Origin: Escherichia coli
Lineage (GTDB): Bacteria > Pseudomonadota > Gammaproteobacteria > Enterobacterales > Enterobacteriaceae
Reading direction: 5' to 3' (one strand)
NCBI RefSeq assembly: GCF_003018115.1
Contig: NZ_CP027457.1
DNA length: 64,000 bases
Made by a program: the position numbers and the translations under genes. Below the pieces are notes generated by a model. That model did not search any database and was not told the DNA's origin. It saw nothing but the letters and a program-made list of their open reading frames with translations. Each line of letters opens with the position of its first letter. The first letter of the stretch is position 1. Of the stretch, positions 5,837 to 11,495 are shown one piece after another.

Positions 5837-6346
5837 ATGGCGACGCTGACAGAAGATGATGTGCTTGAGCAACTGGATGCACAGGACAATTTATTTTCAT
5901 TTATGAAAACGGCGCATTCTATTTTGCTCCAGGGGATACGCCAGTTTCTACCGTCGCTGTTTGTCGATAACGATGAAGAGATCGTCGAATATGCAGTGAA
6001 GCCGTTACTCGCCCAAAGCGGCCCGCTTGACGATATTGATGTTGCGCTGCGTTTGATTTATGCGCTGGGGAAAATGGATAAATGGCTGTACGCCGATATC
6101 ACGCACTTTTCCCAGTTCTGGCATTACCTGAACGAACAGGATGAAATGCCCGGATTTGCCGATGACATGACCTGGGATTTTATCAGCAACGTCAATAGCA
6201 TAACCCGCAATGCGACGCTCTATGACGCGTTGAAAGCGATGAAGTTCGCCGATTTCGCCGTCTGGTCAGAGGCGCGTTTTAGCGGGATGGTCAAAACGGC
6301 GCTGACGCTGGCAGTAACGACAACCTTAAAGGAATTAACGCCGTGA
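5837..6346 (+). CDS. yggD: MtlR-like small regulatory protein (169 aa)
   Basis: ATG at 5837; 169 aa; position and size match YggD. Confidence 0.75.
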   Translation: MATLTEDDVLEQLDAQDNLFSFMKTAHSILLQGIRQFLPSLFVDNDEEIVEYAVKPLLAQSGPLDDIDVALRLIYALGKMDKWLYADITHFSQFWHYLNEQDEMPGFADDMTWDFISNVNSITRNATLYDALKAMKFADFAVWSEARFSGMVKTALTLAVTTTLKELTP

Positions 6347-7056
6347 AAATTGAATTAACGGTGAATGGTCTGAAGGTACAGGCACAGTACCATGATGATG
6401 AGATAGAAAATGTACATAAACCGTTGCTGCGCATGTTGGCGGCCTTACAGACGGTAAATCCGCAGCGGCGTACGGTAGTTTTTCTTTGCGCTCCGCCGGG
6501 GACGGGGAAATCTACCCTAACCACCTTCTGGGAATATCTCGCACAACAAGACCCGGAACTACCCGCTATTCAGACGCTCCCGATGGATGGTTTTCACCAT
6601 TACAATAGCTGGCTGGATGCGCATCAATTGCGCCCCTTCAAAGGCGCACCAGAGACATTTGACGTTGCGAAACTGGCGGAAAATCTGCGCCAGGTAATGG
6701 AAGGGGATTGTACGTGGCCACAGTACGATCGACAAAAGCATGATCCTGTTGAAGATGCGTTGCACGTTACCGCACCACTCGTCATCGTCGAAGGAAACTG
6801 GTTGTTGCTGGACGACGAGAAGTGGTGCCAGCTTGCGCAATTTTGTGATTTCTCGATCTTTATCAACGCGCCAGCTACTGCGTTGCGGGAACGACTGGTG
6901 GGGCGCAAGCTGGCGGGAGGGTTATCGCTGGCAGACGCAGAAGCCTTTTATGACCGTACCGATGGGCCGAATGTTCGCCGGGTGCTGGAAGAGAGTCTGC
7001 CTGCACATTTGACCTTAATAATGACCGCTACGGGTGAATATCGTCTGGTGGATTAA
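6343..7056 (+). CDS. yggC: P-loop nucleoside/pantothenate-kinase-like protein (237 aa)
   Basis: GTG start overlapping yggD stop as GTGA; Walker A motif APPGTGKST; 3-prime end overlaps the convergent ATPase gene. Confidence 0.8.
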   Translation: MKIELTVNGLKVQAQYHDDEIENVHKPLLRMLAALQTVNPQRRTVVFLCAPPGTGKSTLTTFWEYLAQQDPELPAIQTLPMDGFHHYNSWLDAHQLRPFKGAPETFDVAKLAENLRQVMEGDCTWPQYDRQKHDPVEDALHVTAPLVIVEGNWLLLDDEKWCQLAQFCDFSIFINAPATALRERLVGRKLAGGLSLADAEAFYDRTDGPNVRRVLEESLPAHLTLIMTATGEYRLVD

Positions 7057-7705
7057 CGTTCCTGATTACACCATCTTCCAGTCGCACCACCCGAGAGAAA
7101 TGACGCCGGGTAAATGCGGCGTCATGACTGATTGCTACGACGCTCGTGCCTCGCTGGCGGCACTTTTCCAGCCAGCTTTCAAACACGCTCATCCAATTTT
7201 CGTCAAAATCCCGACTCGGCTCGTCCAGCAGCAATAGCGGCGGAGAGAGTGCTTCCAGGCAGGCGACGGCGACCATCCGTCGCTGCGCACTATGCAGATC
7301 TAACGGATGCGCGCTGGCAGTGTCTGCTAACTGACAGCATTGCAGGGCAGCATGGGTACGTTGAGTGATTTCATCCGCCGGGCATTTTTGCAGTTTCAAA
7401 CCAAATGCGATCTCGTCGGCGACGGTGCTGTGAAAAAGCTGGTTTTCCGCTTCCTGAAACAGTACGCCAATCTTTGCTGCACGTTGGCGGTTTTTCAGGT
7501 TTTTCATCGCCTGTTGTTGCAATATAACCGTACCGGTTGTGGGCGTAAGAAGACCTGCCATTACTCGTAACAGCGTCGATTTTCCCGCGCCATTGTCGCC
7601 GGTCAGCGCCAACCATTCACCTTGTTTGAGTTGCAGAGAAATGTCGCAAAGACAATCCGTTGCCGCGCCAGGCCAGCGATAAGTTATCTGATTTAACGTT
7701 AGCAT
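7028..7705 (-). CDS. ABC-type ATPase (225 aa) with a degenerate signature motif; putative EcfA-like subunit 2
   Basis: Walker A GDNGAGKST, Q-loop FQEAE, Walker B LLLLDEPS, H-loop ISHD, but signature is LHSAQ instead of LSGGQ; its ATG overlaps the stop of the upstream ATPase (ATGCTAA). Confidence 0.8.
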   Translation of the reverse strand: MLTLNQITYRWPGAATDCLCDISLQLKQGEWLALTGDNGAGKSTLLRVMAGLLTPTTGTVILQQQAMKNLKNRQRAAKIGVLFQEAENQLFHSTVADEIAFGLKLQKCPADEITQRTHAALQCCQLADTASAHPLDLHSAQRRMVAVACLEALSPPLLLLDEPSRDFDENWMSVFESWLEKCRQRGTSVVAISHDAAFTRRHFSRVVRLEDGVIRNVNPPDDIHP

Positions 7706-8376
7706 AGTGGCTGGAGCGCTCCGTTTTGCAATTGCCAGGCTTGCTGGCAGTAGTTCAGGAAAGGTGTGCGATGACGTTCAAAAAGAATAATCAGCGAACC
7801 ACGTTCAAGCGCCCAGTGTTGTAAGCGCTGCAACAGCATTTCGCTGGCCTGCGGCGTCAGGCGACTAAAGGCTTCATCAAGTATTAAGAGCTTTGGCTGC
7901 ATCGCGATGGCGCAGGCGATGACCACGCGCTGTGTCTCTCCACCGGAGAGTGTTGCCGGGTGACGATGGCGCAACGGCTGGCACTCGGTCAGAGTCAGGG
8001 CGGCATCAATCCGCGCCATAATCTCTTCTTCAGCAAGACACAGATTTTCTGGCCCAAAGGCAACTTCTTCTTCCACGCTAAAGGTACAGCCGGAGAGCTG
8101 CAAATAGGGCGATTGCTGAACGAGCTGGATGGTGGCGGATTGTTCATTAAGCGGGAGATGCCCAATGGGCGTACCGAGAAGCGTCCCCGTGCCGGTTATC
8201 TCTCCTGGCAGAAAGTCCGGATACCAGCCCGCCATCAGCTGTGCCAGCGTACTTTTGCCACTGCCGTTGTCACCAAAGATGGCGACCATCCCCGGTTTGA
8301 CATAGTGAAAGTCATAACAGAACGGAGGATGCGTTGAGTGTGTCGGGCAATAACGGAACTGTTCTAACGTAACCAT
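7699..8376 (-). CDS. ABC-type ATPase (225 aa from ATG 8376; alternative GTG start at 8382) with canonical motifs; putative EcfA-like subunit 1
   Basis: Walker A GDNGSGKST, Q-loop QQSP, signature LSGGETQRV, Walker B LLILDEA; GGAG SD 7 nt upstream of the 8376 ATG. Confidence 0.8.
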   Translation of the reverse strand: MVTLEQFRYCPTHSTHPPFCYDFHYVKPGMVAIFGDNGSGKSTLAQLMAGWYPDFLPGEITGTGTLLGTPIGHLPLNEQSATIQLVQQSPYLQLSGCTFSVEEEVAFGPENLCLAEEEIMARIDAALTLTECQPLRHRHPATLSGGETQRVVIACAIAMQPKLLILDEAFSRLTPQASEMLLQRLQHWALERGSLIILFERHRTPFLNYCQQAWQLQNGALQPLC

Positions 8377-9071
8377 ATCCACGCTCCGAATTCTGTCAGC
8401 ATCAGCAAGATCATGGTGTAACGCGCTACGCGTTGTAGGGTGCTATCGGCTGGTGCCCACAACGTTGTTCGTCGGTTGTGGATCCGAAATGCCCGCATAT
8501 CCAGCGCCGCACCACGGACAGCAAGATTGTTTAGCGCATTGTGTGTTAGCGGAATAATTAACGCGGGCATCGCACGTAAACGCTGATACCAGCCCTCATC
8601 CAGCGGCACGCCGCGGGCACGCTGCGCTTCATGAATAATCGCTAATTGCCGTTTTAACTGCTCAACGACCAATAACGGCCCGGCAAACAGATAAGCGACG
8701 CCTGGCGGCAGGCGAGAAGCAAACAGAGCGCGGATAAAACATTGCACGGGGACGTACTGCATCCACAACTGTGAGGTTGAAACAATCGCCAGAATCCGCA
8801 ACCAGAGCGTAATAGCATGCGTCCAACGCTCCGGCGAACGCGGCGTGCCGCTTAGCCATTCTGTTAGCCAGCCACCGTGTACCAGCCACAGCCCGGCTCC
8901 CAGCGAGAACATCAGCCAGACGACATATTTTGCCCGCCGCCGCGTGGCCTTTAGCGCAATAAGGCAGAAAAAGGTCGCCGCGCTATAGACTGGCAGTATT
9001 GTCTGTGTGGGCAGGATAAGCGTGGTGCAGGCCGCCAATGCCCATAGTGTTAATGAGGTAAATGGATGCAT
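8364..9071 (-). CDS. EcfT/CbiQ-like transmembrane component (235 aa)
   Basis: Polytopic hydrophobic protein containing an EAQRARGVPLD stretch resembling the CbiQ/EcfT coupling motif; its ATG directly abuts the stop of the upstream gene (TAAATG). Confidence 0.7.
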   Translation of the reverse strand: MHPFTSLTLWALAACTTLILPTQTILPVYSAATFFCLIALKATRRRAKYVVWLMFSLGAGLWLVHGGWLTEWLSGTPRSPERWTHAITLWLRILAIVSTSQLWMQYVPVQCFIRALFASRLPPGVAYLFAGPLLVVEQLKRQLAIIHEAQRARGVPLDEGWYQRLRAMPALIIPLTHNALNNLAVRGAALDMRAFRIHNRRTTLWAPADSTLQRVARYTMILLMLTEFGAWIWLR

Positions 9072-9650
9072 TTAGCGCACGGCAGCCATTGCCGGAAAAT
9101 GGCGCGTGGTGCGAATCGGCAGCTGGCGCAGTAAAAGCCAGACAATCACCGCTGTAAGAGTTTTATCGACCAGGTTCGCGCCTATCACCGTAATCGCCAC
9201 CGACTCCACCAGGTTTTGCCCCATCGAGTGCATCCAGGCAACGAACAAATCGGCTCCGCTACCGGTGACACCGCCGAACAGCGCAGTACGCAGCGGTACA
9301 GCGACGACCGTTACCGCAAGCGTAATAATCACGCCGCTGACAACGACTTTTGGCAGGGTGCGAAACCAACCCGCTCGCGCCAGCCAACCGGCGACCAGGC
9401 CGATGACCATCGCGACGGGTGCAAATGCGGCGGCGATCGGGTCGGTCAGCAATCCCCAGAGTAAATTGGTCAGTAAGCCGGTCAGCATTCCGATCACCGG
9501 ACCAAGCAGTACCGCGCTAATAAGTGTGCCGATGGAGTCGAGAAATATAGGTAATTTGACCATGCTGGCCAGTTGCCCGCCGATCATATTGATGGCGATA
9601 GATATAACGATCAACACCAGTGCCTGACTGGAAAAGTGGCTACGCGCCAT
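9072..9650 (-). CDS. ECF-transporter S-component-like small integral membrane protein (192 aa from ATG at 9650; ORF track extends to a TTG at 9749)
   Basis: About six predicted TM helices with an N-terminal FLDSIGT motif; GAGAGG SD upstream of the 9650 ATG. Confidence 0.6.
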   Translation of the reverse strand: MARSHFSSQALVLIVISIAINMIGGQLASMVKLPIFLDSIGTLISAVLLGPVIGMLTGLLTNLLWGLLTDPIAAAFAPVAMVIGLVAGWLARAGWFRTLPKVVVSGVIITLAVTVVAVPLRTALFGGVTGSGADLFVAWMHSMGQNLVESVAITVIGANLVDKTLTAVIVWLLLRQLPIRTTRHFPAMAAVR

Positions 9651-9672
9651 AAGAAAACCTCTCTGAAAGTAG

Positions 9673-10104
9673 TTATTTAACGGGGGAAATATGCAACTCG
9701 TCGTAACCAGAAAGCGCGCAAGGTTGGCGGCTAAACGCCAGTTCCTCAAGGCTACCGATCACCAGTTCAAGCGTGGTCCGCACGGTACAGCCGGGCATCA
9801 TATGACCGCCAAGCATCGTGCCGTGTGGATCGGAAACGCAGAGATGAAGATGCTCACCACTCTGTTCCAACGTGCCGTTTAGTGAGATCACTTCGAATGT
9901 ACCGTTCAGGAGCGTGGTGCCTTCTTGCCCGGCATAGCGCAAGGCGATGTCAGTCAGGCTACCGGTACAGCCTGCAATCCAGGCGGCATGAAGTTGCTGC
10001 TGCTGTGCAAAAGCGTGTAGCTGGGAAAAAACTTCCTGCCCGGGGAGGAGGCGCAGTGCGTAAAAGCGTGCGGAGGAAGAATATGGGTAGGGCAATGTCA
10101 TCAT
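9673..10104 (-). CDS. PPC-domain (DUF296) protein, function unknown (143 aa); first gene of the transporter operon
   Basis: 143-aa soluble protein with a His/Cys-rich stretch (HLHLCVSDPHGTMLGGHMMPGC) that I recognise as PPC/DUF296-like; GGAG SD upstream of ATG at 10104. Confidence 0.6.
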   Translation of the reverse strand: MMTLPYPYSSSARFYALRLLPGQEVFSQLHAFAQQQQLHAAWIAGCTGSLTDIALRYAGQEGTTLLNGTFEVISLNGTLEQSGEHLHLCVSDPHGTMLGGHMMPGCTVRTTLELVIGSLEELAFSRQPCALSGYDELHISPVK

Positions 10105-10475
10105 TGGAGTACTCCGAAACTCGGACGTATTGCGGATAATATCGACGCTGCATCAGTCATATTCTGATATAAGTCAGGGTTTGTGACGGCACAACGAAAA
10201 GATTTTGCTACGCTTATTCGTGATTCTGCAAAGTGGAATAAATTCCACAGGGGCGGGGCTGAAAACGTGACGTAAGTCAGATATTTGTTTTCTTTGACTG
10301 GACAATCATTCCTTTTATTCCACGTTTCGCTTATCCTAGCTGAAGCGTTTCAGTCGATTAAATGTTCGACAATTAACCAATCAGTCGCAGTTTGCGACAG
10401 GTAAGGTTTCCCCGGACGATTTGCTGGATTACTCTGTCTGGCAAATTTGCTCAGGGAAAACCTTGCAGGAGATCT

Positions 10476-11495
10476 ATGACCGTACGCGTAGCGATAAATG
10501 GCTTCGGTCGCATCGGGCGTAATGTGGTTCGTGCTTTGTATGAATCCGGACGCCGGGCGGAAATTACCGTGGTGGCAATCAACGAACTGGCGGATGCTGC
10601 GGGCATGGCGCATTTGTTGAAATATGACACCAGCCATGGCCGTTTTGCATGGGAAGTACGACAGGAACGCGATCAACTTTTTGTTGGTGATGACGCCATC
10701 CGCGTATTGCATGAACGTTCACTGCAATCGCTCCCCTGGCGTGAACTTGGCGTTGATGTAGTCCTCGACTGCACCGGCGTATATGGCTCCCGCGAGCATG
10801 GCGAAGCGCATATTGCCGCCGGGGCCAAAAAAGTGCTCTTTTCACATCCTGGCAGTAACGATCTCGACGCGACCGTTGTTTACGGCGTCAATCAGGATCA
10901 ACTTCGTGCGGAACACCGCATCGTTTCTAACGCTTCCTGTACCACGAATTGCATAATTCCCGTCATCAAATTGTTAGATGATGCGTACGGTATTGAGTCC
11001 GGCACTGTGACCACAATTCACTCCGCCATGCACGATCAACAGGTTATTGATGCATACCATCCTGACCTGCGTCGCACCCGGGCAGCCAGCCAGTCGATCA
11101 TTCCGGTCGATACTAAACTGGCCGCCGGTATCACACGATTTTTTCCGCAATTTAACGATCGCTTTGAAGCGATTGCGGTACGTGTGCCAACCATAAATGT
11201 GACGGCAATCGATTTAAGCGTGACGGTGAAGAAACCTGTAAAAGCCAATGAAGTCAACCTGTTGCTGCAAAAAGCAGCACAAGGTGCATTTCATGGTATA
11301 GTTGACTATACGGAATTGCCGTTGGTCTCTGTAGATTTTAACCACGATCCGCACAGTGCCATTGTCGATGGCACCCAAACCCGGGTCAGTGGCGCACACC
11401 TGATCAAAACGTTGGTCTGGTGCGATAACGAATGGGGCTTTGCTAACCGAATGCTCGACACGACGTTAGCTATGGCTACTGTTGCTTTCAGGTAA
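10476..11495 (+). CDS. epd: D-erythrose-4-phosphate dehydrogenase (339 aa)
   Basis: [16 protein letters not shown]-terminus and GAPDH-family fold with catalytic SNASCTTNC; true ATG at 10476 inside the longer TTG-initiated ORF. Confidence 0.95.

Follow-up and report, generated by a model that had tools for sequence, protein, structure and literature searches.

A probable ECF-type importer motor in Escherichia coli with one consensus and one degenerate ATP site

How many working ATP sites does the motor of an energy-coupling factor (ECF) transporter contain when its two ATPases do not carry the same motifs? The question is raised by a five-gene cassette in a 64,000-nucleotide stretch of DNA of Escherichia coli (NCBI RefSeq assembly GCF_003018115.1, contig NZ_CP027457.1; this whole stretch is called the window below), whose genes follow one another on the minus strand in the order PPC–S–T–A1–A2 and occupy positions 7028–10104. 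The last two genes encode A1 and A2, ATPases of the ATP-binding cassette (ABC) type that would pair into the heterodimer powering a dedicated ECF-type ABC importer composed of S, T, A1 and A2. A reading made from the sequence alone had noticed that A2 carries LHSAQ in place of the LSGGQ signature, and had predicted one consensus and one degenerate ATP site for the heterodimer. Motif clustering, gene fusions, the pattern across the family and a model of the linked pair all point the same way, and we consider it likely that the A1:A2 motor combines a consensus site (site II) with a degenerate one (site I) and that only site II hydrolyses ATP.

The LHSAQ stretch of A2 lies at the signature position (Table 1). 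It matches LSGGQ column for column in HMMER alignments to ABCB1 and ABCB4, and falls under the LSGGE of A1 in the profile–profile alignment of the A1 and A2 families. No canonical LSGGQ was found elsewhere in A2, in which 'SGG', 'GGQ' and any xSxGx stretch were searched for, and the Walker A, Walker B and H-loop motifs are kept, as the sequence-only reading had described. The 120 closest homologues of A2 (70–97% identity, with a cut-off of at least 70%; from Escherichia, Salmonella, Citrobacter, Klebsiella, Atlantibacter and Leclercia) read LH[T/S/A]AQ at this position, and the surrounding block, HPLDLHxAQRRMVAVA, has a conservation of 0.988, compared with 0.866 for A2 as a whole. For these two reasons LHSAQ is neither a chance variant nor a sequencing error: it is real, correctly placed and maintained by selection. 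The serine and the second glycine of the signature, both lost in LHSAQ, contact the γ-phosphate of ATP.

The partner subunit had been taken as canonical, which holds for its signature (LSGGETQRV), Walker A (GDNGSGKST) and Walker B (LLILDEA) but not for its H-loop, in which Arg201 replaces the switch histidine, nor for its D-loop, SRLT. The H-loop region of A1 reads ...LIILFERH, and Arg201 stands opposite His194 of A2 when the A1 and A2 family profiles are aligned with hhalign. Among about 109 distinct A1 homologues, the conservation of F-E-R is 0.97–0.98 and that of the following residue is 0.41 (H/N/R/A). We considered whether His202 might be the H-loop histidine shifted by one position and rejected this, because the residue varies while the preceding F-E-R is kept. 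The A-loop Tyr9, Walker A (K41), Q-loop and Walker B of A1 are invariant or nearly so across the E. coli branch (about 100 distinct sequences), and the D-loops of both subunits (SRLT in A1, RDFD in A2) are invariant in their homologues.

In the head-to-tail dimer of ABC proteins, each ATP is held between the Walker A, Q-loop, Walker B and H-loop of one nucleotide-binding domain (NBD) and the signature of the other (PMC3971661). Because each site is composite in this way, the defects of A1 and A2 would fall on the same site. Site II would be built from GDNGAGKST, Q84, D161–E162 and H194 of A2 together with LSGGE of A1, and matches the consensus apart from the D-loop of A1. Site I would bring the Walker A, Q-loop and Walker B of A1 up against LHSAQ of A2, and would be left without the signature serine and glycine and with Arg201 for the H-loop histidine. 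To judge from these motifs, catalysis probably falls to A2 alone, the very subunit whose signature is broken.

That A1 and A2 work as one pair is supported by several kinds of observation. Whereas word-indexed protein searches yielded Enterobacteriaceae alone, all with at least 70% identity, a tblastn search with the S component against plasmid records returned distant operons with the same S–T–A1–A2 order in Paracoccus yeei, Enterococcus raffinosus (two loci), Brevibacillus, Streptomyces, Haladaptatus and Natrinema. In Haladaptatus and Natrinema, A1 and A2 are fused in that order into a single chain of about 580–620 amino acids (aa), and the Oribacterium orthologues of A1 and A2 are likewise fused in the same order. 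Among all of the NBDs collected, A1 finds its best matches in first-of-pair domains and A2 in second-of-pair domains. In the E. coli cassette the two genes overlap by 7 nt, the start of A2 lying over the stop of A1. We modelled the pair with AlphaFold2 as a linked A1-(GGGGS)6-A2 chain, using a paired alignment of 16 rows; the model has a mean predicted local distance difference test score (pLDDT) of 86.2 and a predicted template-modelling score (pTM) of 0.70. Its best match in the PDB is 8wdb_D (template-modelling score 0.80 over the whole query), which is DppD, the naturally fused two-NBD chain of Mycobacterium tuberculosis DppABCD, in the ATP-bound state. Taken singly, the NBDs of the model match CbiO/EcfA chains at about 2 Å, the closest being 5x40_A (root-mean-square deviation 1.7 Å, 30% identity). 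The fusions, the positional orthology, the overlapping genes and the linked model thus give computational support to a single head-to-tail A1:A2 heterodimer.

We may wonder at this stage whether the asymmetry is peculiar to E. coli. An NBD profile was built and the motif columns were taken from every locus, together with at least 80 loci of a genome scan, a sample that was seeded with distant A2 sequences and is hence biased towards A2-like patterns. Among the matches listed, 19 loci, from haloarchaea to E. coli, combine an S component of the same family with an ATPase pair. In these the signature is canonical in every A1 (19/19) and in no A2 (0/19). The motifs of the catalytic side show the reverse: Walker A is canonical in 12/19 A1 and 19/19 A2, the Q-loop glutamine is present in 16/19 and 19/19, the Asp–Glu of Walker B in 18/19 and 19/19, and the H-loop histidine in 13/19 and 19/19, respectively. 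At the signature position the A2 proteins read, among others, LHSAQ, LDAGQ, FGEPW, MGQPR, LPYSK, LNDTE, LSLGD, LGLSE, IPYPI, LELSD or ISFPL, with no common chemistry between lineages. On the A1 side, the catalytic half is in some lineages plainly dead to judge by its motifs, as in Haladaptatus (Walker A GQSEGGKAT, Q-loop FENP, Walker B LQQP and H-to-Q in the H-loop). An A2 signature that varies from lineage to lineage, together with an A1 catalytic side that erodes, is the pattern that would be expected for a site freed from catalytic constraint. Both signatures are intact in the control loci, which are the canonical EcfA/EcfA′ pairs L053, L076 and L083 and the Cetobacterium pair L006 of the CD3073 type; the position occupied by LPYSK in the Enterococcus A2 is LSGGQ in solved EcfA2 and CbiO chains.

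The same tendency is seen further afield. Of the 48 other tandem pairs among the matches listed, 47 carry a canonical signature in A1 and 11 do so in A2, while 34 have the H-loop histidine in A1 and 48 have it in A2. Searching 1.84 billion cluster representatives with A2, we found that 143 of the best 150 matches are fused two-NBD proteins, a biased sample since the search ranks by summed score and so favours such fusions. In these 143 proteins the signature is canonical in 125 N-terminal and 37 C-terminal halves, the H-loop histidine is present in 106 and 142, and Walker B is canonical in 128 and 143, respectively. Mild variants of the type LS[RKYF]GQ are no proof of inactivity in these counts, as homodimeric CbiO-type ATPases have LSFGQ or LSYGQ. 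Whether the whole S–T–A1–A2 lineage, and perhaps most tandem or fused ECF-type ATPases, are single-site motors, in which the site between the Walker side of A1 and the signature of A2 would have turned non-catalytic while possibly holding ATP, is in our view an evenly balanced question. In the proteobacterial members, where both C-terminal dimerization domains were lost as well, the conserved non-canonical site (LHxAQ with F-E-R) may on this view have taken over the holding of the NBDs or the gating of the cycle.

Some further features of these relatives deserve mention in their own right. Well beyond the family that shares the same S component, tandem and fused ECF-type ATPases often show a non-canonical signature in their second or C-terminal NBD, and in the first or N-terminal one the H-loop histidine, the Q-loop glutamine or the Asp–Glu of Walker B is often missing; many of these pairs carry only mild signature variants (LSRGQ, LSKGQ), the effect of which is uncertain. 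Most A2-type proteins from outside the Proteobacteria also have a G-Q-D D-loop (LDEPTxGQD), compared with G-L-D (LDEPTAGLD) in the EcfA′ chains 4mki_B and 4huq_A. This second family-specific change is found together with the degenerate signature and lies on the same composite site.

A working cycle can be proposed for a motor of this kind. ATP would bind at both sites. The site formed by the Walker side of A2 and the LSGGE of A1 would close and hydrolyse its ATP, which would drive the coupling helices of the T component. The site formed by the Walker side of A1 and the LHSAQ of A2 would bind ATP and hydrolyse it slowly or not at all; it most likely still binds the nucleotide because the A-loop tyrosine, the Walker A lysine and the Asp–Glu of Walker B are conserved in A1. 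About one ATP would be spent per cycle. In the enterobacterial branch both C-terminal domains are gone while LHxAQ and F-E-R stay strongly constrained, and it may be speculated that the occupied degenerate site helps to hold the NBDs together, by analogy with the proposal that the occupied degenerate site of TM287/288 helps to keep the NBDs together (PMC3971661).

Several observations weigh against a single hydrolysing site. A1 retains its catalytic Glu168 and an intact Walker A, such that some hydrolysis at site I is conceivable, and its SRLT D-loop, which would act in trans on the consensus site, lacks the usual aspartate. Homodimeric CbiO-type ATPases tolerate a change confined to position 3 of the signature (LSFGQ, LSYGQ), so that a departure from the consensus does not by itself prove inactivity, although LHSAQ differs beyond this position, the serine and the second glycine also being lost. 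In the ECF module of L. delbrueckii, moreover, a single Walker B E-to-Q substitution in either ATPase ends both ATPase activity and transport (PMC10368641). One-site operation would set the E. coli motor apart from this module, the only ECF motor tested by site-specific mutation. Both sites might instead be active, with LHSAQ and Arg201 as functional variants (His138 or Arg201 could, for example, reach the γ-phosphate) and two ATPs spent per cycle, as in canonical ECF modules. The requirement for both sites in L. delbrueckii would fit, as would the near-invariance of Walker A, the Q-loop glutamine and the Walker B Asp–Glu in A1, and LHxAQ and F-E-R are kept so strongly in the Enterobacteriaceae that these residues must be needed for something. 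We nevertheless find this unlikely, given that the A2 signature of the family as a whole shows no conserved chemistry (FGEPW, IPYPI, LELSD, MGQPR) and that the catalytic residues of A1 are gone in several lineages (QQ in Walker B; H-to-Q and H-to-G in the H-loop). LHSAQ, without its serine and second glycine, is also a more severe change than those at the degenerate sites of TAP2 (LAAGQ) and CFTR (LSHGH).

It is also quite unlikely that site I is empty, A1 being a structural pseudo-ATPase whose only contributions would be LSGGE and a groove in which the T component docks. The Walker A of A1 departs from GxxGxGK[ST] in 7 of the 19 loci (haloarchaeal and some Firmicute), and some relatives have an A1 without its Q-loop or Walker B, yet in the E. 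coli branch Tyr9, K41, the Q-loop and Walker B are nearly invariant, which would be hard to explain without nucleotide binding. As for a decaying remnant, whose odd motifs would reflect early pseudogenization, it is true that K-12 and about 39% of complete E. coli genomes lack the cassette and that S evolves more slowly than the two ATPases. Against this, none of the five open reading frames is broken, and from S through T to A1 and A2 each gene abuts or overlaps the next. The ratios of nonsynonymous to synonymous substitution rates (dN/dS) in comparison with Salmonella are 0.08 for PPC, 0.04 for S, 0.08 for T, 0.11 for A1 and 0.14 for A2, values that are approximate since dS, at about 1.3–1.5, is near saturation; they indicate that all five genes are under purifying selection. 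The motifs are kept in Escherichia, Salmonella, Citrobacter, Klebsiella and Atlantibacter, and a lineage with 58% identity (L094) retains LHAGQ, F-E-R, SRLT and RDFD; the asymmetry is also found in archaea and Firmicutes. Selection and conservation thus contradict the pseudogene reading, which we rejected as very improbable.

Table 1. Positions in the window of the cassette genes and of the motifs discussed
Feature	Residues	Positions	Strand	Remarks
PPC/DUF296 (PF03479) protein	143 aa	9673–10104	−	First gene of the cassette; Pfam PCC, E = 3.5e-28
ECF S component	192 aa	9072–9650	−	RefSeq ATG start; Pfam ECF_trnsprt, RefSeq annotation
ECF T component	235 aa	8364–9071	−	RefSeq annotation; weak Pfam CbiQ match
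T X-Arg-X motif ARG	152–154	8610–8618	−	
T X-Arg-X motif VRG	185–187	8511–8519	−	
ATPase A1	225 aa	7699–8376	−	Pfam ABC_tran (PF00005); RefSeq
A1 Walker A GDNGSGKST	35–43	8248–8274	−	Nearly invariant in Enterobacteriaceae
A1 signature LSGGE	143–147	7936–7950	−	Canonical
A1 Walker B LLILDE and D-loop SRLT	163–168 (D167, E168) and 171–174	7855–7890	−	D-loop non-canonical
A1 H-loop position F-E-R-H	199–202	7771–7782	−	Arg201 in place of the switch histidine
ATPase A2	225 aa	7028–7705	−	Pfam ABC_tran (PF00005); RefSeq
A2 Walker A GDNGAGKST	36–44	7574–7600	−	Canonical
A2 LHSAQ	137–141	7283–7297	−	Degenerate, at the LSGGQ position
A2 Walker B LLLLDE and D-loop RDFD	157–162 (D161, E162) and 165–168	7202–7237	−	Walker B canonical
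A2 H-loop ISHD	192–195 (His194)	7121–7132	−	Canonical

The window belongs to the E. coli chromosome, and its positions 6900–10400 are 100% identical to the sequence of E. coli O169:H41 strains. The cassette is flanked by yggC (6343–7056, plus strand) and epd, and is closed by A1 and A2, each of 678 nt and both labelled 'ABC transporter ATP-binding protein' in RefSeq. The S and T genes abut, T and A1 overlap by 13 nt, and the 3′ end of A2 overlaps the convergent yggC by 29 bp (7028–7056). An Rfam scan of 6800–10700 at E ≤ 1 found no riboswitch or RNA leader, and a promoter and terminator scan gave counts no higher than the shuffled expectation. K-12 MG1655 is without the cassette and has a yggC–epd spacer of 284 bp, whereas the 6900–10400 query, which spans the cassette, is at least 80% covered in 3319 of 5426 complete E. 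coli genomes (about 61%). Salmonella, Citrobacter and Klebsiella are also among the carriers. In Salmonella (L093) all five genes adjoin epd, followed by tkt, and in the lineage with 58% identity PPC–S–T–A1–A2 is found in an unrelated neighbourhood, beside ars genes and a major facilitator superfamily transporter. The cassette behaves as a portable module.

Two side observations concern the genes themselves. The start codons are ambiguous: a mechanical list of open reading frames places the start of S at TTG 9749 (overlapping PPC) and that of A1 at GTG 8382; the RefSeq starts, ATG 9650 for S and ATG 8376 for A1, fit the homologue lengths of 192 and 225 aa. In yggC, the 5′ two-thirds have 90–100% DNA identity to K-12, whereas the 3′ third (about 6820–7056) has about 40–67% per 54–60-nt stretch, and the C-terminal 60 or so residues of the protein diverge from K-12. 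This looks like a recombination breakpoint within yggC that is tied to whether the ECF cassette next to it is present.

The two ATPases are minimal NBDs. The sequence-only reading had remarked on their length of about 225 aa and on the absence of the usual C-terminal extension, and the count bears this out: only 24 residues follow the H-loop in A1 and 31 in A2 (46 and 31 in Paracoccus), compared with 69–118 in all other family members and in the canonical EcfA/EcfA′ controls (74–85 in the canonical pairs). Judging from these long tails in every other member of the family, the C-terminal domain was lost in the proteobacterial branch only, and its absence is no family trait. Short ECF A components are not unprecedented, as in a published alignment of NikO, BioM, CbiO2 and EcfA1 the C-terminal helices are marked only for CbiO2 and EcfA1 (PMC6828968). 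The label EcfA/EcfA′ used in the sequence-only reading fits only loosely: the top NCBIfam matches of A1 and A2 are the ECF_ATPase_1/2 and cbiO models, but the ECF_ATPase profiles are matched only as far as about position 192–231 of 269–279, and the scores fall far below the cut-offs of the EcfA/EcfA′ equivalogs TIGR04520/TIGR04521 (121.7 against 315 bits for A1 and 150.6 against 330 bits for A2). The assignment to the ECF type is carried by the cassette as a whole, in which two ATPases of the CbiO/EcfA class are encoded together with S and T, the S component is of the ECF_trnsprt type and there is no binding-protein gene.

The S component matches Pfam ECF_trnsprt (PF12822) with 32.5 bits (cut-off 30.7) and is annotated 'ECF transporter S component' in RefSeq. 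Its best NCBIfam match is the CD3073 family (NF045596), with 134.2 bits for a cut-off of 180, which makes it related to but outside this equivalog. The T component, annotated as such in RefSeq, matches Pfam CbiQ with 21.4 bits, below the cut-off of 25, and has no NCBIfam match; it carries two X-Arg-X motifs (Table 1), which in T components end the coupling helices (PMC10368641). The PPC protein is close to the Salmonella structures 2HX0/2NMU (E = 7e-75), annotated 'putative DNA-binding protein', and is 81% identical in amino acids to its Salmonella orthologue.

The neighbourhoods of the relatives give a hint of the substrate. The PPC gene precedes the ECF genes in the Proteobacteria (E. coli, Salmonella, Paracoccus and the lineage with 58% identity), and its place is taken by genes for nucleoside hydrolases or PfkB kinases in the relatives from Firmicutes, Haloarchaea and Chloroflexi; with these links the S–T–A1–A2 family extends over haloarchaea, Chloroflexi, Firmicutes and E. 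coli. A nucleoside hydrolase gene adjoins S in Haladaptatus (two), at both E. raffinosus loci, and in L. paracasei, Neobacillus, Enterocloster and a metagenome-assembled genome (MAG) of Chloroflexi. In Neobacillus the gene order is LacI–nucleoside hydrolase–S–T–A1–A2–PfkB kinase, and another S–T–A1–A2 locus is flanked on both sides by PfkB kinases. CD3073, the nearest curated S family, adjoins a TudS-related desulfidase gene. These neighbours, hydrolases of nucleosides and kinases resembling ribokinase, point to nucleoside salvage and make a nucleoside or a ribosylated compound the probable substrate.

Two of the loci collected stand apart. On a Cetobacterium somerae plasmid (the control L006, 5007–8375) the order is S–TudS-related desulfidase (CD3072 family)–A–A–T, with both ATPases canonical, which suggests an importer of thionucleobases or thionucleosides distinct from the E. 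coli type. In the Chloroflexi MAG (L018, 1299–3250) the open reading frame that matches the S profile is 616 aa long and overlaps the nucleoside hydrolase match; it could be a hydrolase–S fusion or an artefact of assembly or frame.

How, then, does a motor with one predicted hydrolysing site compare with known systems? Like the group II ECF modules (L. brevis, 4HUQ; L. delbrueckii, 5JSZ/8BMS), the cassette encodes an S component, a probable T component with two X-Arg-X motifs and two differing CbiO-class ATPases. The group II ATPases, unlike the E. coli pair, have LSGGQ in both subunits and C-terminal helical domains (tails of 74–85 aa), and the module needs both Walker B glutamates (PMC10368641), in which the E. 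coli motor is predicted to differ; the group II module is also shared, whereas the E. coli cassette has its own dedicated S in the operon. Group I CbiMNQO (R. capsulatus CbiO, 5X3X/5X40) is likewise a dedicated S/T/A operon, but CbiO, which has a C-terminal domain, is a homodimer with identical sites in which no built-in asymmetry is possible, whereas A1 and A2 differ. The CD3073/CD3072 system resembles the E. coli cassette in its apparent link to nucleobase or nucleoside salvage genes; it has the order S–TudS–A–A–T and two ATPases that are canonical in signature and H-loop, in which the E. coli cassette differs. The closest parallel in logic is found among the heterodimeric exporters TM287/288, TAP1/TAP2, CFTR and MsRv1273c/72c, in which a degenerate H-loop or Walker side meets a degenerate partner signature, opposite a site that is consensus (PMC3971661). 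These are type IV transporters with NBDs fused to transmembrane domains, while the E. coli system would be an ECF-type importer with free, minimal NBDs, in which A1 retains the Walker B glutamate and the H-loop substitute is an arginine.

According to reviews, degenerate sites are frequent in ABC exporters (PMC3971661), and ECF transporters are themselves well known, but we have not found the link between the two described: the literature covered, in which subscription journals were mostly out of scope, held no paper on a degenerate-site ECF transporter or on this operon. A natural ECF motor with one dead site, if this is what A1:A2 is, would offer a direct experimental handle on the number of ATPs spent per ECF cycle and on the alternation of the two sites. 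ECF transporters are of interest as antibiotic targets and form a mechanistically unusual class of ABC transporters, the S component of which topples in the membrane. The cassette would place an asymmetric ECF motor, conserved from archaea to E. coli, in an organism whose genetics are easy. Its absence from K-12 explains why a five-gene import cassette present in about 61% of complete E. coli genomes has been overlooked in laboratory work.

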